Shown: piece after piece, positions 1,254-53,692 of the stretch
Layout of the letters: each line of letters opens with the position of its first letter
How positions within the stretch are numbered: the first letter of the stretch is position 1
Source of the DNA: an uncultured Clostridia bacterium
Lineage (GTDB): Bacteria; Bacillota; Clostridia; TANB77; CAG-508
Length of the DNA: 64,000 nt
NCBI GenBank assembly: GCA_947629045.1
Contig: CANRCF010000001.1
Location: 72,078-136,077 of the forward strand
Direction of reading: 5' to 3'
Program-made: the position numbers and the translations under genes
The notes under the pieces: model-generated
Seen by the model: only the letters and a program-made list of their open reading frames with translations
Databases searched by the model: none
What the model was told of the DNA's origin: nothing

Positions 1254-2861
<1,608 letters not shown>

Positions 2862-2907
2862 CTATTCACTTACTTTTTATGATTTATTTTATTTTGAGCT
2901 TATAAAT

Positions 2908-2960
2908 AAAAAAAATAGATTTAAAATAAAATACCTTTTGGGGTGTTTTTTTTAAATCTA
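2908..2960 (-). terminator. Rho-independent terminator after the toxin-antitoxin pair
   Basis: Long hairpin TAGATTTAAAA...TTTTAAATCTA (2916..2926 / 2950..2960) with an inner AAAATACC/GGGTGTTTT extension. On the minus strand a T-run follows (plus-strand A-run 2909..2915). Confidence 0.55.
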
Positions 2961-3016
2961 TCATATTTATATGATACTACTATTTATCATAATTTGTAAA
3001 GAGTCTTTTGGAATAT

Positions 3017-3313
3017 TTATAGAAATAAATATAATTTTTTAAAGAAAAAATTTTTTGAATTATTTACTATTGCATGAATATAAATTTTATCATTTTCAAT
3101 TTGGTATATGATTTTATGTTTTCTAAATATAAGTTGTCTTATGTTATGAAATTTAGATTTACTAATTACTTTGCCTATATACGGCATTTCTTCTAAAATT
3201 TTAATATAATTTAAGAGGTTAAGAATGTATGTTTTTTTCATATTGTAGTATGAAATTTTATTCATAATTTCTTTTAAGTCTTGGAGGCTTGTTTTTGTAA
3301 AAATTATTACCAC
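3017..3313 (-). CDS. RelE/ParE-superfamily type II toxin
   Basis: 98-aa ORF overlapping the upstream small ORF by 7 nt, a typical TA coupling. Size and the C-terminal ...KHKIIYQIENDKIYIHAIVNNSKNF pattern fit ParE/RelE-like toxins. Family call is from memory only. Confidence 0.65.
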   Translation of the reverse strand: MVIIFTKTSLQDLKEIMNKISYYNMKKTYILNLLNYIKILEEMPYIGKVISKSKFHNIRQLIFRKHKIIYQIENDKIYIHAIVNNSKNFFFKKLYLFL

Positions 3314-3471
3314 GTCTCAACCTCTTTTCTTAATTCGTCTAGTGAACATATTTCTCCATTGTTAATTGCTTCAATACTTTTCTCTATTTTTTTATCAATA
3401 TAAGCATAATATATGTTCTCCATAATTTTATTTGTAGTTCCTAATTTGATAGTCTTCTTCTTAACTTGCAA
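3307..3471 (-). CDS. Putative antitoxin partner of the ParE/RelE-like toxin
   Basis: Small ORF directly upstream of and overlapping the toxin. I prefer the TTG at 3471, which has AAAGGAGTGA upstream, over the track start at 3489, which sits directly after a TATAAT box. Confidence 0.5.
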   Translation of the reverse strand: MQVKKKTIKLGTTNKIMENIYYAYIDKKIEKSIEAINNGEICSLDELRKEVETW

Positions 3472-3610
3472 TTTTATCACTCCTTTCAATAGTATTATAC
3501 TAAATTTCTGTTAGATTAGTCAACAAATTTTTTCTTACATTTTTCGACAAATTCAATAAAAATTAAGCACTATAATACTTAAAATTAAGAATTATAGTGC
3601 TTGTTTATTT

Positions 3611-4087
3611 TTATTTTGTAATAGATAAAATTTTGTATTGTATAGTTCCTGCTGGTGCTTGAACTTCAACTATTTGATTCTTTTTTGCACCTAAAATAGC
3701 ACTTCCTATTGGAGACTCGTTTGATATTTTGTTTTGTGCTAAATCAACTTCTGTAGAACCAACTAAAGTGTAGCTTACTTCTTCATTGAACTCTATATCT
3801 AACAATTTTACAGTGTTTCCAACTTGAACTGTCTTAGTATCTATTTCAGATTCGTCAATTATTTTTGCATAACGAATTTTATTTTCTAATTCAGCGATTT
3901 TTGTTTCGTTTTCAGCTTGTGCATTTTTTGCTTCATCATATTCAGAATTTTCAGATAAGTCGCCAAATCCTAAAGCAATTTTTATTCTTTCGGCAATTTC
4001 GCCTCTTTTTGTTGTTTTTAAATAATTTAACTCTTCCTCTAATTTATCATAGCCTTCTTTTGTTAGTAATACTTCCTTATCGTCCAT
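3611..4087 (-). CDS. greA: Transcription elongation factor GreA
   Basis: [24 protein letters not shown]...[15 protein letters not shown] is GreA-like. ATG at 4087 is preceded by AGGAGG. The track ORF starts further upstream without an SD. Confidence 0.9.
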
Positions 4088-4239
4088 TTGTCTATGCCTC
4101 CTTTTGCTTTTAAAATGTAATTGCAACAAACTATATAAAAATATAGGTTGTTGCTCATTGCGTTCTAATATAATAAATTTTTTAAAATTTGTCAAGTTTT
4201 TTACAAGATTTTTCACAAAATGTTCACTTTACAATTTTT

Positions 4240-5263
4240 TTAAGCTGAATTTAATTCTTTTTCTCTCACTCTTTTACATTCTTCATTTGTAATAATTCCA
4301 TTTTTTCCATATAACTTTATAATTCTAACTTTATCTCCTATTATTTTATTTCTTATTTTATAGAACTGCCTTTGATTCAATAAGCTTTCATATAATGTAG
4401 TAATTGGTATATTGTCTAATAAATTATATTGTGAAAAAATTTTCTTTGCTTCATCTGATGTATCTATATCTATTTTTTTAATTTGAATTCCTTCAAAGCC
4501 TAAATTATCATAGTTATAGTTTTTATCCATAGTTATTATTACAGCCATTCTGTATATAGAATATTTTTTTATTTCTTCATCTTCAAAATCAAAATTTATA
4601 ATCCATTTAGCTTTTTTCAGGCTCTTCTTTTTATTATTACTAATTGTTACAACAATATTCTCTTTTTCTTCTATTTTTTCAATTATTTTTTGAAATTTGC
4701 TTATATTCGGCGTAATTATATGTATATTTCTAAAATATTCTCCTAAATAACTAATGTTGTCAATATAAATTTGCCTTGGTTCCTTCATGCAAAAGTATAA
4801 ATCTTCAAGCTCAGTTTGCTCTCCTTGCTGTTTTAAAATATATTCTAAGGTTTCTTTTATTAAATATGGCATTAGTCCGCTTCCGTCAATAATATGTATC
4901 TTTCTTGTAACTTCTTCTTCAAAAATGCTCAAATTTTTTTCCAATTCATTTGAAAATACTAAATTATCTATTTTATATTTTTCAATTAGTTTTCTTACTT
5001 TTTTCATACATTTTTTTAGTTTTACATGATATTTTTTGCCGAGTAAATTGACCAAATGGAAGAATAAATATATATGCATCATAAATTTTCTTTACAGTTA
5101 TTAAATTAAATAAGTATTTTATTTTTACAATTAGTTCATAAAATGTAAAGCACAGTAGATATTGAAGTTTAGCAAATTTTGTTTTTTTATTTTTTATATT
5201 TGTTAAATAGTCAGTTTCATATAATTCTTCATTTGAAGTTTTTTCCTTTATATAACCCAGCAT
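4240..5263 (-). pseudogene. Hypothetical protein apparently split by a frameshift in an A7/T7 run
   Basis: Track ORFs 4982..5335 and 4240..5082 overlap in different frames. A good SD (AGAGGTG, 5 nt spacer) precedes the ATG at 5263, while no SD precedes any Met of the downstream ORF. Removing one base from the run at 5011..5017 fuses them (...KTKK|CMKKVRKLIEKYK...). Confidence 0.4.
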
Positions 5264-7652: not shown

Positions 7653-7987
7653 ATATTCTGTTTCTCGGCATACAGTCATCTTTATCTATTTATAATTATA
7701 TAAAATATAAGTTATGCAATCCTATTGCAGCAAAAAATTTCTACCGTAAATATGATGAAACAATTAAAATATTAGAAAATTTTCCTTTTGCCTATCCTGA
7801 ATTAAAAGATACAAATTTTAGATATCTTGTTTTAAATCAATGGATTGTTTTATATGAAATTCAAAATTATCTTATTATCATTCATTTTGTATTACACTCT
7901 AGACAAAATTTCCATAAAAGTAATTCTGACTTGTCCCAAGTACCCCAAAAATGGGAAAGTGGACCTGGTCCCTTTACTGCTTCTTAA
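7633..7987 (+). pseudogene. ParE/RelE-like toxin remnant (frameshifted)
   Basis: From GTG 7633: VNCYQIKYSVSRHTVIFIYL then a stop. The next frame continues ...SIYNYIKYKLCNPIAAKNFYRKYDETIKILENFPFAYPEL...IIIHFVLHSRQNF, which is ParE-like. That frame has no canonical start and runs on through the repeat at 7925..7972. Confidence 0.5.
7925..7972. repeat. Copy A of a ~50-nt intergenic repeat (second copy at 52984..53035)
   Basis: TCTGACTTGTCCCAAGTACCCCAAAAATGGGAAAGTGGACCTGGTCCC versus TCTGACTGACCTGTCCCTTTTACCCCAAAAATGGGGAATTGGACCTGGTCCC. Confidence 0.6.
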
Positions 7988-8360
7988 TTTTAGGTTTTGC
8001 TAGAAGTGATGCTAGATAGCCAAAAAATACTGCTGCTGCAATTCCACCAGCTGAGGCTTTAACCCCGCCTGTAAATGCTCCAAGAAGACCTGCTGTTTTT
8101 ACTTCCTGCATAGCACCTTTTGCAAGGTTAGCACCAAAGCCAAGTAATGGTACAGTGGCTCCTGCTCCTGCAAAATCAATTAAATATTTATAAATTCCAA
8201 GTCCTCCTAAAATAGCACCAGTTGTTACAAATATAACTAAAATTCTTGCAGGTGTAAGTTTCGTTTTGTCAATTAGAATTTGTCCTATTATACATATTAT
8301 TCCACCTACTACAAAACATTTTAAGATTCCCATCCAATCTATACTTTGTATAAAATCCAT
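7974..8360 (-). CDS. spoVAE: Stage V sporulation protein AE (SpoVAEB-type)
   Basis: 128-aa membrane protein, ...VVGGIICIIGQILID...GAGATVPLLGFGANLAKG..., last gene of a spoVAC-AD-AE run. Confidence 0.85.
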   Translation of the reverse strand: MDFIQSIDWMGILKCFVVGGIICIIGQILIDKTKLTPARILVIFVTTGAILGGLGIYKYLIDFAGAGATVPLLGFGANLAKGAMQEVKTAGLLGAFTGGVKASAGGIAAAVFFGYLASLLAKPKIKKQ

Positions 8361-9576: not shown

Positions 9577-10020
9577 CTACATAAATAAAAGTGCAACTAT
9601 ACCAACAATTACAGAAGCTGAAATACCAAATACTAAAACTGGACCCGCTACTGTAAACATTTTTCCTCCTACACCCATTACATAGCCTTCTGATTTATAC
9701 TCAATAGCAGGAGAAACAATAGAGTTTGCAAATCCCGTAATTGGAATTAAAGACCCTGCACCTGCAAATTTTCCAATTTTATTAAATACATTTAAACCTG
9801 TTAAAATTGCTGATATTGCAATAAGTATAATAGATACTACCGTAGATGCTGCTGTTTCATCTAAGCCTTTAAATTTACAAAAATCCATTATAATTTGTCC
9901 TATTGTACAAATAAGTCCACCTACCCAGAATGCATTAAAGCAATTTTTTAATATTGGTGAATTAGGTGATTTTTGGTCTACATAGTTGCTATATTCTTGC
10001 TTAGTTTCAATTGGTTTCAT
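9577..10020 (-). CDS. spoVAC: Stage V sporulation protein AC
   Basis: 147-aa membrane protein, ...FWVGGLICTIGQIIMD...GAGSLIPITGFANSIV... Confidence 0.9.
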   Translation of the reverse strand: MKPIETKQEYSNYVDQKSPNSPILKNCFNAFWVGGLICTIGQIIMDFCKFKGLDETAASTVVSIILIAISAILTGLNVFNKIGKFAGAGSLIPITGFANSIVSPAIEYKSEGYVMGVGGKMFTVAGPVLVFGISASVIVGIVALLFM

Positions 10021-10135
10021 TTTATTTTACCTCGTATAATTAAATATTCTAATTATACTCTCCTTTCCTTTTTTAATTTCATGTGATATTCTTTTTTTAC
10101 TATTCTTACTTTGCCTTACTAATTATTCTGTGTTA

Positions 10136-10348
10136 TTAGTCCCTATCTCTATCAATTACAAAGCATAAATCTAAATCCACAAAATATTCAACTAATTTTT
10201 TTCCTTCTATTCTTGCTCTTTGCTCTAATATTTTTACTCCTGATAAATAATCAATTGTTTTTGAAGCCTCGTTAACTGCTTGTACTACTGCATCCTTCCA
10301 AGATACTGTTGAAGTAGCTGTAATTTTTAAATGTTTTTCAATTCCCAT
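10136..10348 (-). CDS. Dodecin-family protein
   Basis: MGIEKHLKITATSTVSWKDAVVQAVNEASKTIDYLSGVKILEQ... fits dodecin (~70 aa). ATG at 10348 has GAAAGGA 9 nt upstream. Confidence 0.65.
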   Translation of the reverse strand: MGIEKHLKITATSTVSWKDAVVQAVNEASKTIDYLSGVKILEQRARIEGKKLVEYFVDLDLCFVIDRDRD

Positions 10349-10591
10349 TTTTGTCATTCCTTTCACTGTGCCATATATGCACAAAATTTAATTTTTAATA
10401 AACTCGTGATATTCATTTATTTGCTGTTTTTATCTTTTCCAAAAAATTAAGTTTTATACAAAAAATAGGAATTTTAATAAAAACTTCTAAAAAGCAAATA
10501 AGAATTTTGTTTTTTGCACAAAAAAAGAGATTATCCTAATATTTTAGTTTAATCTCTAATTTTTAATTTCAAATTAATTCTTATTTTATTC

Positions 10592-10942
10592 TTATGCTTT
10601 TTTAGCTACTTCTGCAATTTCAGCAAATGCTTTTGGATCTGTAGCTGCAATTTCTGCAAGCATTTTTCTATTGATAACAACATTTGCTTTCTTTAATCCG
10701 TTAATTAGTTTGCTGTATGTCAAACCATTTAAACGACTAGCAGCATTAATTCTTGCTATCCATAATTTTCTAAAGTTACTCTTTTTGTCTTTTCTACCTA
10801 CATAAGCATAATTTCCAGATTTCATAACTGCTTGTTTTGCCATTCTAAATCTATAATGTTTTGCTCCATAGTAACCTTCTGCTCTTTTTAATATTTTTTT
10901 ATGTTTTTTACGACTAATTCTTGCTGTTTTAACTCTTGCCAT
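10592..10942 (-). CDS. rplT: 50S ribosomal protein L20
   Basis: [29 protein letters not shown]... Confidence 0.95.
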
Positions 10943-11027
10943 TTTATTTCACCTTCCTTAATTATTATGCGGGGCAATTTATTATTAACTTAATTCTAAC
11001 TTCCCCTAACAAGTTATTTTTAATTTT

Positions 11028-11231
11028 CTAATTACCGTATGGTAACATTCTCTTAATTCCTGCTTCGCAAGTCTTATCTGCATAAGCATCTTGTACTTTT
11101 CCTCTAGATTTTGCTCTACTTGTTTTGCGAGCTAAAAGATGTCTTTTATTAGATTTTGTTCTTTTTACTTTTCCTGTAGCTGTATAAGAATATCTTTTCT
11201 TTGCTGCTTTATTTGTTTTTAATTTTGGCAT
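11028..11231 (-). CDS. rpmI: 50S ribosomal protein L35
   Basis: MPKLKTNKAAKKRYSYTATGKVKRTKSNKRHLL... Confidence 0.95.
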   Translation of the reverse strand: MPKLKTNKAAKKRYSYTATGKVKRTKSNKRHLLARKTSRAKSRGKVQDAYADKTCEAGIKRMLPYGN

Positions 11232-11266
11232 AGTCTTTTCCTCCTTTAAATTTATGCTAATCTATT

Positions 11267-11785
11267 TTATTTATCAGCTTTTTTTGCTAATATAATAAAC
11301 ATATTTTTACCTTCTAATATTGGCTTTTTTTCTGGAACAGAAATATCTGCTAATTCATCAGTAAATTTTTGAAGAACTTCTTCTCCTAATTTTATGTAGT
11401 TCATTTCTCTTCCTCTAAATTTTAATGTTATTCTTACCTTGTTGCCATCTTCTAAGAATTTTCTAGCATTTTTTGCTTTGAATTCAAAGTCATGTTGTTC
11501 AATATTAGGTGTAATTCTAATTTCTTTTAATTCAAATGTTTTTTGTTTTTTACGAGCTTCTTTTTCTTTTTTTGCTTGTTCAAATTTGTATTTGCCATAG
11601 TTCATAATTTTGCAAACTGGCATATCTGGATTTGGAGATACCATAACTAAATCTAATTTTTTATCATAGGCTAAATCTAAGGCATCTTGAAGATTCATAG
11701 CTCCTTTTTTTTCTCCGTTTTCATCAATTAATTGCACTTTACTTGCTCTTATTTCTTCATTAATTGGTAAATCTTGTTTTATAAT
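11267..11785 (-). CDS. infC: Translation initiation factor IF-3 (probable ATT start)
   Basis: ...IKQDLPINEEIRASKVQLIDENGEK... The track TTG start at 11800 lies inside the SD (TGGAGGTG). ATT at 11785..11783 follows GGAGGTG by 4 nt, and a non-AUG start is the known autoregulatory feature of infC. Confidence 0.85.
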   Translation of the reverse strand: MIKQDLPINEEIRASKVQLIDENGEKKGAMNLQDALDLAYDKKLDLVMVSPNPDMPVCKIMNYGKYKFEQAKKEKEARKKQKTFELKEIRITPNIEQHDFEFKAKNARKFLEDGNKVRITLKFRGREMNYIKLGEEVLQKFTDELADISVPEKKPILEGKNMFIILAKKADK

Positions 11786-11800
11786 AAAACACCTCCACAA

Positions 11801-12066
11801 ATTTTTATTTTACACTTTAATATATTTTATAATTTTATATTTTTGTGCAAAATCTGTTTTAATATATTTTAATAAATATGTGTACAAAAAAAGATTGATT
11901 TTTCTTAAAATCAATCCACACTAAATTATAACTATATTTGCAATAATACATTTCAATTTTGTATTTACCTTTTATGTGATGCTATTCATAAAAGTATATA
12001 AGTTATATATTTTAACCTTTTCCCTATTTGGTTAAGGTGAGCATGGATTGCTTCTTTTTTTGACTT
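11801..12066 (-). promoter_or_regulatory. infC-rpmI-rplT leader (L20-leader-like, with internal attenuator)
   Basis: ~265-nt untranslated leader between a sigma-A promoter and infC, containing stem-loops and an intrinsic terminator. This matches the known L20-controlled attenuation layout of Firmicutes. No covariance model was run. Confidence 0.45.
11886..11916 (-). terminator. Leader attenuator/terminator upstream of infC
   Basis: Minus strand reads GATTGATTTT-aaga-AAAATCAATC followed by T7. Confidence 0.6.
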
Positions 12067-12070
12067 AATT

Positions 12071-12100
12071 ATTATACTGCACTTTTTAGTTATTTGTCAA
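12071..12100 (-). promoter_or_regulatory. Sigma-A promoter of the infC operon
   Basis: Minus strand TTGACA (12100..12095), 18-nt spacer, TATAAT (12076..12071). Confidence 0.5.
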
Positions 12101-12151
12101 GACTTTTTATAAATTTTTCAGTTTTTCGGTTTTTTACATTTTTTGACAATG

Positions 12152-12196
12152 CAAAAAAGCTACTCAAAAATTTTTTTCTTCTAAGTAGCTTTTTTA
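12152..12196 (-). terminator. Rho-independent terminator after the FGE-domain gene
   Basis: AGCTACT / AGTAGCT stem (12158..12164 / 12184..12190) flanked by an A-run and a T-run, so it could act in both directions. Confidence 0.65.
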
Positions 12197-12259
12197 TTTT
12201 TAACACACCATATTATACAATCTCATTTTAACATTTACATCTTTGCAAATTTTCAGTCA

Positions 12260-13621
12260 CTATTTTAGGTAAAGCACAGGACGAAAGCCGACGTCGATGT
12301 CGTAGCTGCCAACCGTGTAGTCACCACTGCGTTTAGCTGCTGGGTAACCGCCGCCGTTGTTGTAAAAGCCGCCCCCGCGAAGAACAGCGTAGATAGTATT
12401 TCCTGTTGGTTCTGTCTTTGTTTCTGTTGTTGTACTACTATGACTTCCTTTTTCTGTTGTCCATTCCCACATGTTTCCTGCAAAATCATATATATTTTTT
12501 GCTTTATTCCTTTCTGATATTCCTGTTGCTAATTCATATAATGTTTGTTCTCCTTCCGCAGACCTTGCCTCAAAATTTACTGACCCTCTTTTATAATTTC
12601 CTTGGTTTTCTGTACATGTCCATCCATTATTATAGTCTATACTATGTATTGAATATAATCCATTTACTCCTTCTCCTGAATCTGCATTTACATAGTTACC
12701 CCATGAGGTACTATCTGTTACATCATATTTATTATCTTTACTTAGCCAGTGGCATATTGTGTCCCATGCTTGTGAATCTATTAATCTACTTGTTACTGAT
12801 GTGCTATCTTCGTACATCCTTTCCGATAATCCTTTTGCAACTGTTTGACTTACATAATTCCATGCTTGTAATCCTTTCCTTGATGCTGGTAAATTTTCTT
12901 TTGTTACTTCTTTTGCTGATTTATTTCTGTTTGCTTCATTTGATTTTTCTGTATATTTAGTAGTTTCATCATAGTTTATGCTCTCTGGCACTCCTGCTTC
13001 ATATCTTGCTACATAAAATCCCCCATATTTTTTTACGCTTTCTTTTCTTTCTGTTATGTTTTCTTCGTCCCACCAATCTTTATAATCTTTGTAATTTGCA
13101 TTTGCTTTTTCTTTCCATGTTTTTGTGTCTTGTCTATATATTATTTTTCCATTTTTTTCATCTTTTTGAATCTCATTATTACCTTCTTCACTATTTGTAC
13201 TATTTACAGAAATAACTTTGTCACCTTCTTCTACACCATCTACTGGCACCCATACAAATTCATTTCCTTTGCTATCAATAATTACTAGTCCTTCATCAAC
13301 AACATTTTCTCCCTCAACCCCACTTACTGCAAATCCTGCTGGGACTGTTATTGTTTTTCCATTTTTATCCGTATATTTCGTATTTTCAAAATGCATTAAT
13401 GCTTCTGCAATTGTAATTTGCCTTAAATCTTTATCTTTTGCCTCATTTGTTTTTTCTCCTGCTTCTTTGGCGAGCTGCAATATTCCATTATCTCCAAATA
13501 CCACTGTTACGCTTACCGATGCCAAAATCAAAAGTACTACTATTGTTACTACTAGAGCTATTAATGTTATTCCTTCAACATTTAAGCCTTTTCTTGTGTT
13601 GGTCCTTTGTCTCTTTTTCAT
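12260..13621 (-). CDS. Pilin-like N-terminal anchor + FGE-sulfatase (SUMF1 / C-type-lectin fold) domain protein; candidate DGR target
   Basis: 453-aa ORF with AAGGAGG upstream. N-terminus is ...KGLNVEGITLIALVVTIVVLLILASVSV (prepilin-like hydrophobic segment). C-terminal domain carries AWDTICHWL, GNMWEWTTE, LRGGGF and VGFRP motifs of the FGE/SUMF1 fold. Confidence 0.8.
   Translation of the reverse strand: MKKRQRTNTRKGLNVEGITLIALVVTIVVLLILASVSVTVVFGDNGILQLAKEAGEKTNEAKDKDLRQITIAEALMHFENTKYTDKNGKTITVPAGFAVSGVEGENVVDEGLVIIDSKGNEFVWVPVDGVEEGDKVISVNSTNSEEGNNEIQKDEKNGKIIYRQDTKTWKEKANANYKDYKDWWDEENITERKESVKKYGGFYVARYEAGVPESINYDETTKYTEKSNEANRNKSAKEVTKENLPASRKGLQAWNYVSQTVAKGLSERMYEDSTSVTSRLIDSQAWDTICHWLSKDNKYDVTDSTSWGNYVNADSGEGVNGLYSIHSIDYNNGWTCTENQGNYKRGSVNFEARSAEGEQTLYELATGISERNKAKNIYDFAGNMWEWTTEKGSHSSTTTETKTEPTGNTIYAVLRGGGFYNNGGGYPAAKRSGDYTVGSYDIDVGFRPVLYLK
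12263..12395 (-). other. Candidate diversity-generating retroelement variable region (VR)
   Basis: Abrupt switch to G+C-rich sequence over the last ~44 codons. Codons are mostly NNC (GGC GGC TTT TAC AAC AAC GGC GGC GGT TAC ... GGC AGC TAC GAC ATC GAC GTC GGC TTT CGT). Placement at the extreme C-terminus of a CLec/FGE fold, ending in GFR, matches known VRs. Confidence 0.55.
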
Positions 13622-13817
13622 TTTCCATTTTCCTCCTTAATTATTAACTTTCTTCGTATTTTGTAAATTCTTCTCAGATTTACTTTTTTAATTTATATAT
13701 TTTTTTATTCTCATTTATATTTAAATAAAAAAGAATAAAATATTAAAATCTAATATAATTTTTCTACATTTTTTTCAAAAAACTAATAAAAAATAAATAG
13801 TTATTCATTTACAAGCA

Positions 13818-13860
13818 ACAAAAAGGACAGGCTATTTTATTTTTATAAAATAGTCTATCC
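13818..13860 (-). terminator. Hairpin/terminator between the microsatellite ORF and the FGE-domain gene
   Basis: 16-bp imperfect stem GGACAGGCTATTTTAT / ATAAAATAGTCTATCC (13825..13840 / 13845..13860). On the minus strand TTTTT follows. Confidence 0.5.
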
Positions 13861-13999
13861 TTTACTAATTTATTATATATATTTTTTATATTATCTATGT
13901 TTTTTTCACTATATATGTTGTTTGTATTTTTTATATTGCTTATTTTTGCTACTATAATATTAGCTATTTTACTTGCAAATAGCTTTATATCTTTTTTAT

Positions 14000-14119
<120 letters not shown>

Positions 14120-19886: not shown

Positions 19887-19982
19887 AAAATGTGAACCGC
19901 AACCCTATTTGCGAAATATAAATTTATAGGTGAGAAAATGTGAACCGCAACCCTGCTTGCGAGATATAAATGCGCAGGTGAA
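19887..19982 (+). repeat. Two tandem 48-nt repeats, each able to fold as an H-type pseudoknot (candidate structured RNA)
   Basis: Unit 1 is 19887..19934 and unit 2 is 19935..19982, with 8 differences. Stem 1 is CGCAA/TTGCG. The loop CCTAT pairs with ATAGG in unit 1 and becomes CCTGC pairing with GCAGG in unit 2, which is two compensatory base-pair changes. A perfect 12-bp helix (19877..19888 / 19989..20000) encloses both units. Confidence 0.7.
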
Positions 19983-42112: not shown

Positions 42113-42261
42113 AATATAGTAGTTTTAAGCAACACCGCGCAGCGTTCAAACGGAACGAAGTGAAGTGCGCTTGGAGCAGTCTACTTATATTGTGTAATAA
42201 ATCGTTAAATTTATTACACAATAAGACTGCGACAGCAAGGTGTAAGTAAAGCTACTATATT
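42113..42261 (-). repeat. Structured repeat, copy 1 (110-nt conserved core 42133..42242 inside a copy-specific outer stem)
   Basis: The core CACCGCGCAGCGTTCAAACGGAACGAAGTGAAGTGCGCTTGGAGCAGTCT...AGACTGCGACAGCAAGGTG recurs at 45506..45617. Outer stem is ATATAGTAG / CTACTATAT. Minus orientation is suggested by changes that remain G-U pairs only in the minus-strand transcript. Confidence 0.75.
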
Positions 42262-45479: not shown

Positions 45480-45642
45480 AAAGTTGAAGTATTACGTTTT
45501 GCATGCACCGCGCAGCGTCCAAACGGAACGAAGTGAAGTGCGCTTGGAGCAGTCTACTTATACTGTTTAATAAATTGTTAAATTTATTAAACAATATAAG
45601 ACTGCGACAGCAAGGTGCAAAAAAACATAATACTTCAACTTT
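45480..45642 (-). repeat. Structured repeat, copy 2 (core 45506..45617 inside a different outer stem)
   Basis: Same core as copy 1, with 5 substitutions and one 2-nt indel. Outer stem AAAGTTGAAGTATTA / TAATACTTCAACTTT (15 bp) is unrelated in sequence to the outer stem of copy 1. Confidence 0.75.
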
Positions 45643-45692: not shown

Positions 45693-48389
45693 TTAGAAGC
45701 CTGTTCTTGGAAGTTTCTTTTTAACTTCTACACTTTTATTTTCAATAGTAATTCCTACTGTTTTTAAGTTTTGATTTATTTCAATTTCATATTTATTTGT
45801 ATTTAACACATAATATTTAGAACCAGTGTCTTTTTCTTTTATATAATATTTTCCATATTCTAATAATTTACTTGTAGCCTTGCCATCTTCTTTTGTAGTA
45901 ATTGTATCTACTAGTTCATCTTTTTCATTATATATTTCAAATATTGCGCCTTTAAGTGCTGTGCCCTTTTTTTCATTAGTTATGCTATTATCATCAGCGC
46001 TTACTTTTGTAATTTCAATGTAACCTTTAATTTTTTCGTTTGCAAAGTTTAGGGTTGTAATTTGGTTTTCTTCTAATACTACTGTTTTTTCTTCATCACT
46101 TAGTACATAATTTTCTAAGGTTTTTGTTTCTTTTATAGTATATTTTTGGTCAATTGGTAATTTTTTTGTTACAGCTTCTCCATTTTGATCTGTTACTAAT
46201 GATTCTACAAGGTTACCTGCTTCGTCATATACTTCAAATTCAACGCCTTCTAGTTTTATTTCGTTATTATCTTTATCAACTTTTATTACTTTTATTTGAC
46301 CTTTTTTCTTTTCATTTTTAAATACTAAATTTGTTATTTCGCCTTGCTTTAATACTACTGTTTGTGCATTTTGGTCTAATACATACCACTTTCCAGTTTT
46401 AGTTTCCTTTACTTTGTATTCTTGTCCTAATGGTAGTTTTTTGCTTATAGCTTCTCCGTTTTTATCAGTTATTAAAGTATCAACTACTTCTCCATTTTGA
46501 TCATATATTTTAAATTCAACATCTGGCAATTTTACTTCGTTATTGTCTGCATCTATTTTTATTACTTTAATTTGGCCTTTTTTAACTTCGTTTTCAAAAA
46601 CTACACTACTTATTTGATTTTCTTTTAAAGTAACAGTTTTAGGAGCTTCGTCTAATACATAGTTTTCTAACGTTTTTGTTTCTTGAAGGGTTAATTTTGA
46701 AAAATCTCTTACTGCATATTTTTTTGTTAATGCTTCACCATTTTTATCTGTTTTTATTGTTTCTAGAATGTTTCCTTTTTCATCAATTACATTAAATTCT
46801 ACATCTTTTAATTTTATTTCTTTATTTTCTTTATCAACTTTTATTACTTTAATTTGTCCTTTTTTAAGCTCGTTTTCTATTTTTGTTTCTACAGTTTCGT
46901 TTTCTTTTACTGTTACTAAAGTTTTTGTGTCATTTAATTTGTACCATTTATTTGTGCTTTTTTCTAGCCAGCTATAATTGCCTACTCTTAAGTTTTCTAC
47001 TAAAATTTCTCCGTCTGCGTTTGTGTAATATGTTCCTATTACCTTACCTTTTTCTTCTGAATATAAGTCAAATTCTACATTTCCAAGTGTTATTTGGTTA
47101 TTATCTTTGTCAACTTTAATAAGCTTTAAATTGCCGGTTTTTCTAGTATTTTCAAAAGTTACTCTTGCTACACCATTATACTCTAATTCTACTTTTTTTA
47201 CTTCATCTGATAAAATATAATTTTCATTTGCTTCTATTTCTTTTACATCATATATTCCAGGGTATAGATTTTCTATTGTAGCTTTTCCACTTTCATCTGT
47301 TTTTACTGTTGTAACTACACTTCCGTCTTTGCTAATTTCTAAAGTAGTATTTGAAACTGGCTCTTTTGTGTCTTTATCTATCTTCATTATTTCCATTTTT
47401 GAATTATTGGTTTTAAGTTCAAATGTAGTAGATGTGCTTAGTTCTTCATAAGGATTTGCAACTACTACATAATCTTGGTAATCTGGATTTTCTGCCTTAG
47501 CAAAAAAGGCTGGATAAGTTTTTATTTGTGCTTTATTTATTTTAACATTTATTCTTACATCTTGCATTATACTGCTTTTAGGGATTTTTACTGATATTGT
47601 TGTGCCATTTTTTGTGTAAGTAGCAGCTTTAAAGCCTTCAATTAAAACTTCGTAATTTCCAATTTCTTTATTTGAATTTAATTTAAAATCCTGTACTAAA
47701 TTATTTCCATTACTATATATTGAACCGCTTTTTTCTAATGATATTGTTGCTGTTTCATAATTATCTTTACTGGTTGTAGCATAATTATATAGTTTTTCTG
47801 CTGCATCTAAAATTTTCTTTCCTCTTCTTTGAACATCCTCTAATGTAAGGCCTAATTTTTTATCAGAATTTGCGATATGTGTAGGTACTTCATATTTTGT
47901 CTTTGGTGATACTGCTTGTTTTTCATTTAAACAATGAATAACTAATTTAGTTACAAAATACCAATCATCATCACTTTCTACAACTGGTCCTGATTTCATC
48001 TCTTTATTGTCAGTATCAGATGTAGTTGTTTCATTCCACTTTTTGCCAAAATAGCCATGATACAAAGCTCTCCATACCCTTGCATCATCTATCTCTTTTG
48101 TTATTTCTGTTAAATAGTTATCTCCTCCACCTGTTCCAACGCCTGGGTCTAATGGTTCTAAGCAAAATGCTTCTAATCTTTCTCCATTTTTATCTTGATA
48201 ATATACTCTATATACTAATTTCAATGAACTGTCTGACTTGTACTGAACAAAGCCTGGAAGTTCTCTTTCTGCATATAATCTTGTTTTATCTCCTAATTTT
48301 ACTGTGTATGCTGTTACTATTGGACTTAAAGTATTTATAAGCATTATTAGCGCTAGTAACATATAAATACCTTTTTTAATTGTTTTCAT
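45693..48389 (-). CDS. Surface adhesin: signal peptide, thioester-type N-terminal domain, seven or more Cna-B/SpaA-type repeats, LPRTG motif (sorting signal truncated)
   Basis: 898 aa. EAFCLEP and VWRALYHGYFG thioester-domain motifs. Repeated KKGQIKVIKVDKDNNE...GVEFE(V/I)YD units. The ORF ends ...KKKLPRTGF then stop, with no hydrophobic or charged tail. Confidence 0.85.
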   Translation of the reverse strand: MKTIKKGIYMLLALIMLINTLSPIVTAYTVKLGDKTRLYAERELPGFVQYKSDSSLKLVYRVYYQDKNGERLEAFCLEPLDPGVGTGGGDNYLTEITKEIDDARVWRALYHGYFGKKWNETTTSDTDNKEMKSGPVVESDDDWYFVTKLVIHCLNEKQAVSPKTKYEVPTHIANSDKKLGLTLEDVQRRGKKILDAAEKLYNYATTSKDNYETATISLEKSGSIYSNGNNLVQDFKLNSNKEIGNYEVLIEGFKAATYTKNGTTISVKIPKSSIMQDVRINVKINKAQIKTYPAFFAKAENPDYQDYVVVANPYEELSTSTTFELKTNNSKMEIMKIDKDTKEPVSNTTLEISKDGSVVTTVKTDESGKATIENLYPGIYDVKEIEANENYILSDEVKKVELEYNGVARVTFENTRKTGNLKLIKVDKDNNQITLGNVEFDLYSEEKGKVIGTYYTNADGEILVENLRVGNYSWLEKSTNKWYKLNDTKTLVTVKENETVETKIENELKKGQIKVIKVDKENKEIKLKDVEFNVIDEKGNILETIKTDKNGEALTKKYAVRDFSKLTLQETKTLENYVLDEAPKTVTLKENQISSVVFENEVKKGQIKVIKIDADNNEVKLPDVEFKIYDQNGEVVDTLITDKNGEAISKKLPLGQEYKVKETKTGKWYVLDQNAQTVVLKQGEITNLVFKNEKKKGQIKVIKVDKDNNEIKLEGVEFEVYDEAGNLVESLVTDQNGEAVTKKLPIDQKYTIKETKTLENYVLSDEEKTVVLEENQITTLNFANEKIKGYIEITKVSADDNSITNEKKGTALKGAIFEIYNEKDELVDTITTKEDGKATSKLLEYGKYYIKEKDTGSKYYVLNTNKYEIEINQNLKTVGITIENKSVEVKKKLPRTGF

Positions 48390-52983: not shown

Positions 52984-53035
52984 TCTGACTGACCTGTCCC
53001 TTTTACCCCAAAAATGGGGAATTGGACCTGGTCCC
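52984..53035. repeat. Copy B of the ~50-nt repeat (first copy at 7925..7972)
   Basis: See copy A. This copy overlaps the last 11 codons and the stop of the trmB ORF. Confidence 0.6.
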
Positions 53036-53692
53036 AATAAGTGCTTTAATTTTTATTCCTTGCTCGCTAAACATTTTTTCATGCTCTGTTTCAATGTTTT
53101 CAAAACTATCCCAAAAGTTTTCTTCATTTTTTAAGTCTCTTGTTATCTTTTCTATTTTAAATCCAGTATTTTCAAAATAGTGTATACTTTCTTCAAATAA
53201 ATTACTGTCATCTGTTTTAAAATATATTTTTCCTTCTGGCTTTAAAAATTCTTTGTAGTGTTCAAGTTGCCTTGTATATGTAAGTCTTTTTTTGTGATGC
53301 TTCCCTCTTGGCCATGGGTTACAAAAGTTAATATATATTCCATCTACTGCATCTTGTTCAGATAATATTAGTAAAATTCTTTCTATATCAAATCTAGTTA
53401 AAATTACATTGTCTATTTCTTTTTTTGCTTCTTTGTAAACTTCTTCTACCTTTCTTTTTGCTAAGCCTAACATAGGATCAACTAAGTCTATTGCTATATA
53501 ATTGTTTTCTGGATGTTTTAGAGCCATTTGTGATATAAATGCTCCTTTTCCACATCCTAATTCTACAAATAATGGATTTTCTGGTCTTGCAAATTCTTTT
53601 CTCCATTTTCCTTTTATTTCTTCTGGATGCTCTCTATAAAAAGCACTTTCTTCTAGTTCTTTTCTTGCCCATGGTTTATACCTTATTCTCAT
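53003..53692 (-). CDS. trmB: tRNA (guanine-N7)-methyltransferase
   Basis: MRIRYKPWARKEL...FVELGCGKGAFI...NFCNPWPRGKHHKKRL... The C-terminal ...GTRSNSPFLG is encoded by the repeat. Confidence 0.9.
   Translation of the reverse strand: MRIRYKPWARKELEESAFYREHPEEIKGKWRKEFARPENPLFVELGCGKGAFISQMALKHPENNYIAIDLVDPMLGLAKRKVEEVYKEAKKEIDNVILTRFDIERILLILSEQDAVDGIYINFCNPWPRGKHHKKRLTYTRQLEHYKEFLKPEGKIYFKTDDSNLFEESIHYFENTGFKIEKITRDLKNEENFWDSFENIETEHEKMFSEQGIKIKALIGTRSNSPFLG

Follow-up and report, generated by a model that had tools for sequence, protein, structure and literature searches.

A G+C-rich gene tail in an uncultured gut Clostridia bacterium is very probably the variable region of a remote or possibly orphaned target of a diversity-generating retroelement

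The DNA analysed here is a 64,000-nt stretch from an uncultured Clostridia bacterium (assembly GCA_947629045.1, contig CANRCF010000001.1, positions 72,078 to 136,077), and this whole stretch is referred to as the window. Its genes are the housekeeping and sporulation genes of low-G+C Clostridia, with infC-rpmI-rplT, rplM-rpsI, spoVA, spo0A and sipL among them, and in their neighborhood lies a minus-strand gene for a protein of 453 amino acids (P0001), whose last ~45 codons form a compositional island. A reading of the sequence alone had proposed that this island is the variable region (VR) of a target of a diversity-generating retroelement (DGR), a system in which a reverse transcriptase (RT) copies a template repeat (TR) into the VR. 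The features of the locus, all on the minus strand and counted from the first letter of the window, are as follows.

12260 to 13621, minus strand: putative DGR target gene, an open reading frame (ORF) of 453 amino acids with a pilin-like hydrophobic N-terminus, a middle region without family match, and a C-terminal FGE-sulfatase/C-type-lectin-type domain that ends in the VR.
13502 to 13573, minus strand: N-terminal hydrophobic helix GITLIALVVTIVVLLILASVSVTV, near-invariant in the family according to the alignment, resembling a prepilin-type signal.
12275 to 12550, minus strand: Pfam FGE-sulfatase match, which includes the VR.
12273 to 12387, minus strand: probable VR of 115 nt, reading CTGTTCTTCGCGGGGGC...TTTCGTCCTGTGCT and encoding ..VLRGGGFYNNGGGYPAAKRSGDYTVGSYDIDVGFRPVL, aligned without gaps to the TRs of the related loci L212 (1596-1710) and L209 (4238-4352).
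12273 to 12289, minus strand: VR 3' end GGCTTTCGTCCTGTGCT, a likely initiation-of-mutagenic-homing (IMH) stretch, beyond which VR and TR diverge.
12153 to 12189, minus strand: candidate intrinsic terminator read from the sequence, a hairpin GCTACTTAGAAG...TTGAGTAGC followed by a T-run, in a downstream module common to paralogues.

In intervals of 100 nt, the G+C content reaches 0.50-0.56 at 12250-12400, compared with ~0.30 in the remaining gene and 0.279 in the whole window, and a stretch of 133 nt at this place is the G+C maximum of the entire 64 kb (0.549-0.564, z = 4.8; next peak 0.496). The codon usage changes as well: C-ending codons account for 20 of the 36 codons in the block (56%) and for 27 of the 409 codons upstream of it (7%; Fisher p = 1e-12), whereas A-ending codons are found 3 times among the 36 and 231 times among the 409. 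Glycine is encoded six times by GGC in the block and 24 times by GGA upstream, tyrosine by TAC at all four positions in the block and by TAT at 16 of 18 positions upstream, and arginine by CGY codons in the block and AGR codons upstream. The sequence-only reading had described such a switch at the gene end, and the G+C maximum and the synonymous codon shift confirm it; the sequence and peptide that it gave for the final ~36 sense codons were correct when the window was read again. Its VR, placed at 12263-12395, thus corresponds to a real block, but homology to real TRs narrows the VR proper to the 115 nt listed above. An island of this type could also have arisen without any DGR, either as a 3' cassette that was horizontally acquired or recombined from an organism of higher G+C content, or as an effect of a Gly/Arg/Ala-rich composition, with its variation being generated by ordinary recombination and selection. 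The bias, however, lies in synonymous choices (GGC/GGA, TAC/TAT, CGY/AGR) and therefore goes beyond the amino-acid content.

The VR is positioned at the C-terminus of an FGE-sulfatase/C-type-lectin-fold domain, as is characteristic of the CLec1-FGE class of DGR targets. It is the C-terminal part of the domain alone that is recognized by Pfam (residues 358-449, E 7e-6, 26.3 bits with a cut-off of 23.3), and the motifs YGGFYVARYEAG, AWDTI, NIYDFAGNMWEWTTE, RGG, and GFR are conserved in the alignment of homologues. The AlphaFold2 model of the protein has a mean predicted local distance difference test score of 71 and a predicted template modeling (TM) score of 0.75, and the best Foldseek matches to this model in the PDB were the DGR variable proteins Mtd and TaqVP, and FGE, albeit weak ones (E 0.02-0.2, TM 0.2-0.3); a PDB sequence search with the protein gave no significant match. 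The modeled fold is thus compatible with a C-type-lectin/FGE fold, which falls short of proof. At the other end of the protein, the N-terminus GITLIALVVTIVVLLILA is near-invariant in the family and is modeled as a long helix of low confidence. We describe it as pilin-like in the sense of a resemblance in sequence: the matches to Pfam N_methyl (E 0.11, 12.6 bits with a cut-off of 21.2) and NCBIfam GspG (E 0.11) stayed below the cut-offs, and position 5 after the Gly in the N-terminal motif is Ala, not Glu, in the alignment.

The window contains no retroelement that could serve this gene, as the sequence-only reading had already stated. An adenine-tolerant ungapped scan of both strands for a TR-like copy found the self match only, with at least 26 non-adenine mismatches elsewhere, and a repeat search of the 64 kb found no second copy of the block. 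Pfam analysis of the 20 ORFs of at least 276 amino acids returned housekeeping matches or none, without any RT or Avd, and tblastn of the window with RT and Avd sequences of the protein family stayed at E > 6.

Templates of the family were found in relatives. The window protein has more than 5,000 homologues (1 is named among 120 listed), and the identified host genomes are metagenome-assembled genomes of uncultured Clostridia from rabbit ('Lapin') and human guts, with at least 12 unlinked paralogues in Lapin-005 bin70 and at least 9 in Lapin-027 bin8. A G+C-rich final stretch of 150 nt (0.45-0.56, compared with ~0.30 upstream) is common in the family, and other members have drifted to 0.30-0.40. 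When every 3' end of the family was blasted against 79 fetched loci, TR-like copies outside genes were detected in L163, L192, L189, L159, and L169. In L169, the target (9914-11650) is followed by Avd (11798-12166; NCBIfam DivGenRetAVD E 1.4e-18, with 67 bits under the 80-bit cut-off of the model), RT (12144-13157), and TR (13180-13300), and cassettes or cassette remnants are present also in L189, L192, L159, L163, and L174. The TR of the family cassettes is located directly 3' of the RT, which contains a YMDD motif and is preceded by an Avd homologue; bAvd was found in all related cassettes. In these loci, the mismatches between TR and VR fall on TR adenines in 10/13, 11/12, 11/12, 14/16, 15/17, and 13/16 cases. 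The family TRs are made of AAC codons, their homology to the VRs extends from ..GTTCTTCG.. to ..GTGCT, a register that the window block shares. Past GTGCT, the VR of every family pair continues with TTTAC or TTTAT and the TR with CTAATAT; the homology of the window VR to all TRs stops after ...CGTCCTGTGCT, where the VR continues with TTTAC, and this is a boundary of the IMH type. By analogy with the Bordetella phage paradigm, the 3' stretch of the VR likely acts as the IMH. Such an exact end of the homology at the TR/VR boundary, and the collinearity of the block with real TRs beside RT and Avd, argue against an unrelated 3' cassette. We think that the block stands out because the codon usage of a TR, consisting of AAC and A-poor scaffold codons, was imposed on a genome of 28% G+C. 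The earlier proposal that the runs of NNC codons result from adenine mutagenesis is therefore correct in part, and the other part comes from AAC codons of the TR itself and from A-poor, C- or T-ending scaffold codons.

One DNA scaffold is common to five or more unlinked paralogues of Lapin-005 bin70, which vary at adenine-type positions alone and have no RT within 10 kb; they therefore are trans targets. From these sequences, trans or remote targets appear to be normal in the family. An RT found on three contigs in NCBI and ENA (P0200) was considered as well and rejected, since its DGR is a different one and has an unrelated TR.

The closest cassettes stem partly from public read assemblies and partly from the same series of rabbit-gut samples. 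In L209, which was reached via its target protein P0017, the target is followed by bAvd (2852-3220; Pfam bAvd E 3.7e-15), RT (3204-4214), TR (4238-4352), an ORF of 120 amino acids, and then rpmG-secE-nusG-rplK-rplA. The 90% cluster of the L209 RT (P0280) has three members and is the only RT cluster with more than 73% identity to this RT, and the TR alleles on the contigs listed for the cluster are TR-209 (L209, L214, and L215; L216 in part), TR-213, and TR-212. TR-209 differs from its own VR at 17 positions, all of which are TR adenines, and TR-212 at 12 positions, 11 of which are TR adenines. A comparison with the window VR gives 18 mismatches for TR-212, with 13 at TR adenines and 5 at other positions (Fisher p 2e-5; 9/9 at A in the first 79 nt), and 21 mismatches for TR-209, with 13 at TR adenines and 8 at other positions (Fisher p 2e-4); the final 14 nt of the window VR are identical to TR-L212.

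A sibling gene that resembles a paralogue lies in L206. Its protein (P0016) is 49% identical to the window protein, and the genes are ~75-83% identical on the DNA level outside the VR, whereas the two VRs agree at 96/115 positions, synonymous sites included. Of the 19 differences between them, 17 are located where TR-212 or TR-209 has an A. In this pair, as in the bin70 paralogues, variation among related copies is nearly confined to TR-adenine codons on a fixed DNA scaffold. The VRs of the window and of L206 have the same base as each other at the non-adenine sites that distinguish TR-209 from TR-212, and at position 101—the only non-adenine site at which the window VR differs from both TRs—they share a base that is found in neither. 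This common scaffold implies that the template of both VRs was a third TR allele of the lineage, which we reconstruct as CTGTTCTTCGCGGGGGC[A/G]GCTTTAACAACAACGGCAACG[A/G]TAACCCAGCAGCTAAACGCAATGGT[A/G]ACAACACGGTTG[A/G]CAACTAC[A/G]ACATCAACATCGGCTTTCGTCCTGTGCTC.

An origin of the block unrelated to DGRs would find some support in the mosaicism of the family, in the identical C-termini of some homologue pairs, and in the indels between VRs of different subfamilies. However, TR adenines account for most of the differences of the block from the TRs and the sibling VR (p 2e-5 and 17/19, as given above), and together with the synonymous bias, the collinearity, and the boundary, this makes such an origin very improbable. 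The example of mosaicism is P0002 (L202, sample ERZ27249158), a protein with 94% identity to the window product and a different tail. P0002 had been considered as evidence for diversification and was rejected: according to the comparison of L202 with window positions 12127..14066 and with L207, its first ~393 residues are those of P0001, whereas its C-terminus and downstream genes are those of another family member, P0008. Either P0002 is a true recombinant, or a repeated gene gave rise to a chimera during assembly.

We therefore regard it as highly probable that the G+C-rich gene tail is the VR of a DGR target, remote from its retroelement or possibly recently orphaned, and the initial proposal of a DGR VR at the C-terminus of an FGE/C-type-lectin-fold protein is thus supported by the cassettes of relatives, the alignment in register, the adenine bias of the mismatches, and the scaffold in common with the sibling. 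According to this reading, the DGR RT together with bAvd would copy the TR RNA, misincorporating opposite template adenines, and the resulting cDNA would replace the last ~115 nt of the target coding sequence. In this way, the ligand-binding face of the C-type-lectin/FGE-fold domain would be randomized at about a dozen codons, with the scaffold codons being left untouched. The window gene would be one of several dispersed paralogues served in trans by a cassette, which in close relatives is located downstream of another paralogue, beside rpmG-secE-nusG, and the window VR would have been written from a TR allele with 5-8 non-adenine differences from the alleles observed. The homing mechanism, its action in trans on the window copy, and the display of the protein at the cell surface are inferred.

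Several results weigh against this reading. On the structural side, no Foldseek match reached E <= 0.001, and the likeness of the model to known variable proteins is thus not significant. Every observed TR differs from the window VR at non-adenine positions, at 5-8 of them, and searches for a cognate TR found none: an 81-nt pattern tolerant of adenines, which matches the exact cognate allele alone and would miss TR-209 and TR-212, had no match in 185,579 species-representative genomes (GTDB) or in IMG/VR. A fair test was the corrected scaffold pattern, which in JGI metagenomes and IMG/VR had no match outside L001—a contig of an independent assembly of the window region—and L206. The same databases had no match to a consensus pattern made from the window and L124 VRs, in which a fixed G that is A in the inferred TR may have excluded the TR. 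A fully adenine-tolerant pattern (each X as {X, A}) was swamped by poly-A/N runs in IMG/VR, and the scaffold codons were then fixed. In addition, the VR is identical across three assembly contigs, one of which was inspected, so that nothing points directly to diversification still going on; L001 matches the window with 0 mismatches along 11.9 kb, except for the length of a microsatellite. Finally, the only strain that carries the TR allele of the window in a VR, that of L206, has no cassette at the syntenic site.

The last point leads to the question of whether the window strain still has its cassette, for which the sequence-only reading had named a remote target, an orphan, or a relic as alternatives. 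The housekeeping genes that flank L206 and L209 are 95-99% identical, and the two loci are therefore assigned to the same species; the target genes themselves (for P0016 and P0017) have 75% DNA identity. The 2.1-kb avd-RT-TR-orf120 segment of L209 (2778..4874) is missing in L206 at ~5059, where the junction lies at short A-rich repeats, and the presence of the cassette therefore varies among strains of one species. The window VR could accordingly be a recently orphaned one, in a sub-case of the DGR reading in which the bAvd-RT-TR cassette was lost by such a ~2.1-kb deletion by rpmG, leaving a frozen, intact VR that will decay towards A+T. We consider the chances of this to be about even. Besides the absence of the cassette from the strain with the matching allele, such a loss would agree with the alleles on the contigs listed for the three-member RT cluster (TR-209, TR-212, or TR-213, not the inferred one), with the sameness of the VR across assemblies, and with the decay seen in relatives. 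P0008, which was found in the same metagenome sample as the window gene at similar coverage and is for this reason regarded as a paralogue from one and the same genome, carries a decayed VR of lower G+C content, and the 960-nt gap 3' of it, syntenic with the L189 cassette, contains no remnant of avd, RT, or TR. The VR in L124, from Lapin-022 bin14 (GCA_947630185.1), has a frameshift and, as judged by eye, about four C-to-T changes relative to the inferred TR; this genome is the nearest GTDB representative, and its Era and Fe-hydrogenase genes are 93-96% identical to those of the window. Yet the window VR is intact, each of its non-adenine sites agrees with one or both of the TR alleles compared, with the exception of position 101, which has the same base as in L206, and the block is the most G+C-rich one of the window, so that any loss would have to be very recent. 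The window strain and the L206/L209 strains are, furthermore, linked by a TR allele in common and by sample co-occurrence rather than by overlapping sequence.

Sample ERZ27249158 bears on both sides of the question. It contains a cassette contig (L214, identical RT, coverage 6.5) as well as genes of the window strain at a coverage of 8.6-9.5, including exact copies of P0015 (9.5), which is recorded in the database as lying on the 143,297-nt contig that also encodes the window product P0001; P0002 was also found in this sample. The co-occurrence speaks against a loss of the cassette and for a target that is still serviced, with a cassette of the third TR allele residing on another contig and the VR being re-written in trans at times. 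The intact ORF, the IMH-like 3' end identical to TR-L212, and the absence of A+T decay in the VR fit with this, and unlinked remote targets are the rule in the family and documented for non-phage DGRs (PMC5758913). However, L214 carries TR-209 and not the cognate allele; TR-209 has 8 non-adenine mismatches to the window VR, and its element copies non-adenines faithfully into its own VR (17/17 at A). Moreover, the pattern scans of genomes and metagenomes did not find the inferred allele, and no variation of the VR between samples was seen. We rate active servicing as somewhat less likely than not. Whatever happened to the cassette, we conclude that the window VR was written recently.

Taken further, the DGR reading leads to a tentative picture, to which we would give not quite an even chance: one small chromosomal DGR would act in trans on a dispersed family of pilin-like, lectin-tipped surface proteins, its cassette would be gained and lost between strains, and the VR islands would clock the last homing event. 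If this is true, the lineage has family copies numbering up to a dozen or more per genome, often by ribosomal-protein operons; fresh VRs, such as that of the window, keep the TR composition, and orphaned VRs decay by C-to-T changes and frameshifts. Nature would then have provided a time series of DGR loss and an allelic series of TRs (TR-209, TR-212, TR-213, and the inferred one) that co-evolve with their targets.

Some observations on the family stand beside these arguments. In this lineage, family genes and cassettes adjoin ribosomal-protein operons, namely infC-rpmI-rplT and rplM-rpsI at the window, rpmG-secE-nusG-rplK-rplA for P0016/P0017, and rpsF-ssb-rpsR by the L203 cassette. Several members carry a frameshift either at the 5' edge of the VR or shortly upstream of it, near the ..RGG.. 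codons (L124 at 1641..1757, L148, L161, and two copies in L187), which suggests recurrent indels at the homing boundary or the decay of orphaned copies. A small ORF of 90-123 amino acids lies 3' of the TR in L209 (4525..4887), L189 (5817..6152), L169 (13445..13717), L212 (1979..2350), and L214 (1920..2282). It may be a fourth, undescribed accessory gene of the DGR, and the one in L209 has a weak match to an SSB/OB-fold (Pfam SSB E 0.0027, below cut-off).

Non-coding sequence is common to the paralogues over ~400 nt upstream and ~130 nt downstream of the genes. The ~130 nt 3' of the stop codon of the window gene are 91-94% identical in L002 and L124, and L202 also aligns there. The hairpin at 12153..12189 is not listed by a consensus terminator scan, and the conserved G+C-rich hairpin of cis targets was not found 3' of the window gene, where only a weak A+T-rich hairpin is present. 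On the other side, ~430 nt upstream of the start of the target gene and between it and the divergent rplM, there is a perfect (TG)17.5 microsatellite (14047..14081), which is 7 units (14 nt) shorter in the independent assembly L001; phase variation of the tract or a collapse during assembly could be the reason. The contigs L001 and L202 break within ~550 nt upstream of family genes.

Elsewhere in the window, two 91-nt direct repeats (42133..42223 and 45506..45596; 95% identical, ~3.4 kb apart) each combine a G+C-rich half (CACCGCGCAGCGTTCAAACGGAACGAAGTGAAGTGCGCTTGGAGCAG) with an A+T-rich palindrome that comes after it, and they bracket genes for a WG-repeat protein and for a CNNM/CorC protein without matching any Rfam family. 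An intergenic tandem pair of 48-nt units with 83% identity (AAAATGTGAACCGCAACCCT.TTTGCGA.ATATAAAT...) lies at 19887..19982. A 76-nt repeat (7926..8001 and 52989..53064; 74% identical) has palindromic sequence of the GGGACAGGTCAG / CTGACCTGTCCC type at gene ends and may be a dispersed terminator or an element resembling repetitive extragenic palindromes. The SpaA/prealbumin-fold repeat protein of 898 amino acids encoded at 45693..48389, the gene of which has internal DNA repeats of 276-282 nt with 74-88% identity, is likely a second surface adhesin in the window. At gathering thresholds, Rfam detected no RNA family in the 64 kb, including ribosomal-protein leaders near infC-rpmI-rplT or rplM, and the extreme A+T content or the divergence of the lineage may be the reason.

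What can be learned from this locus concerns the detection of DGR targets as well as their history. An island of C-ending codons at the 3' end of an A+T-rich gene can flag a DGR target whose retroelement is tens of kb or a whole contig away, and standard DGR finders, which need a nearby RT and TR, would miss such remote targets. The island exposed a large, almost unannotated family with more than 5,000 homologues and up to 12 or more paralogues per genome, whose tips would be diversified in trans, and thousands of related RTs occur in rabbit and human gut Clostridia. The strain-variable cassette in one species makes it possible to measure the rate of VR decay after loss of a DGR. The known working principles of DGRs are unchanged by this, and we add a new example of an established system.

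Among known systems, the nearest are the 'category b' DGR targets, in which a CLec1 VR is located at the C-terminus of an FGE-sulfatase domain and for which TvpA of Treponema denticola is the type example (Wu et al. 2018, PMC5758913). The Treponema DGR has seven non-adjacent targets, and remote targets are known for cellular DGRs (PMC5758913). The window target belongs to this class—CLec1 VR at the FGE-sulfatase C-terminus—which is the commonest class of DGR targets. As with TvpA, the VR is C-terminal in an FGE-sulfatase/C-type-lectin-type domain and has the RGG...GFR frame, the DGR of the lineage is cellular and not of phage origin, one element would serve several non-adjacent or remote targets, and mutagenesis is adenine-specific, as found here in the relatives. 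Unlike TvpA, the window protein carries a pilin-like hydrophobic helix at its N-terminus instead of a lipoprotein signal, and it has an extra N-terminal and middle region of ~300 amino acids without family match; it has no significant sequence or structure match to TvpA, and its host is an uncultured gut Clostridia bacterium of 28% G+C in which the cognate TR and RT of the window copy were not found. With the DGR of Bordetella phage BPP-1 (avd-TR-brt, IMH, cruciform) and its target Mtd, the family shares the combination of Avd, RT, and TR as well as the A-to-N changes; in both, the VR occupies the 3' end of the target, and a short G+C-rich stretch marks where TR/VR homology ceases. Variants of Mtd were the top, though weak, Foldseek matches. 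The gene order in the relatives, in contrast, places the TR last, behind the RT (target-avd-RT-TR), the window family is chromosomal by ribosomal-protein operons and not at a phage tail-fibre locus, and no G+C-rich hairpin like that of cis targets is evident 3' of the window gene. Genomes with many paralogous targets and one or a few cassettes are also reported among CPR (candidate phyla radiation)/DPANN organisms and multicellular bacteria (PMC4372165, PMC10907252), from which the RT clades, target architectures, and hosts likely differ. In the limited literature search that we made, neither pilin-type DGR targets nor the present Clostridia family were mentioned. The features that set the present system apart are the pilin-like N-terminus, the large dispersed family of paralogues, a gene order (target-avd-RT-TR) in which a small ORF follows the TR, the gain and loss of the cassette on the strain level, and the allelic series of TRs.

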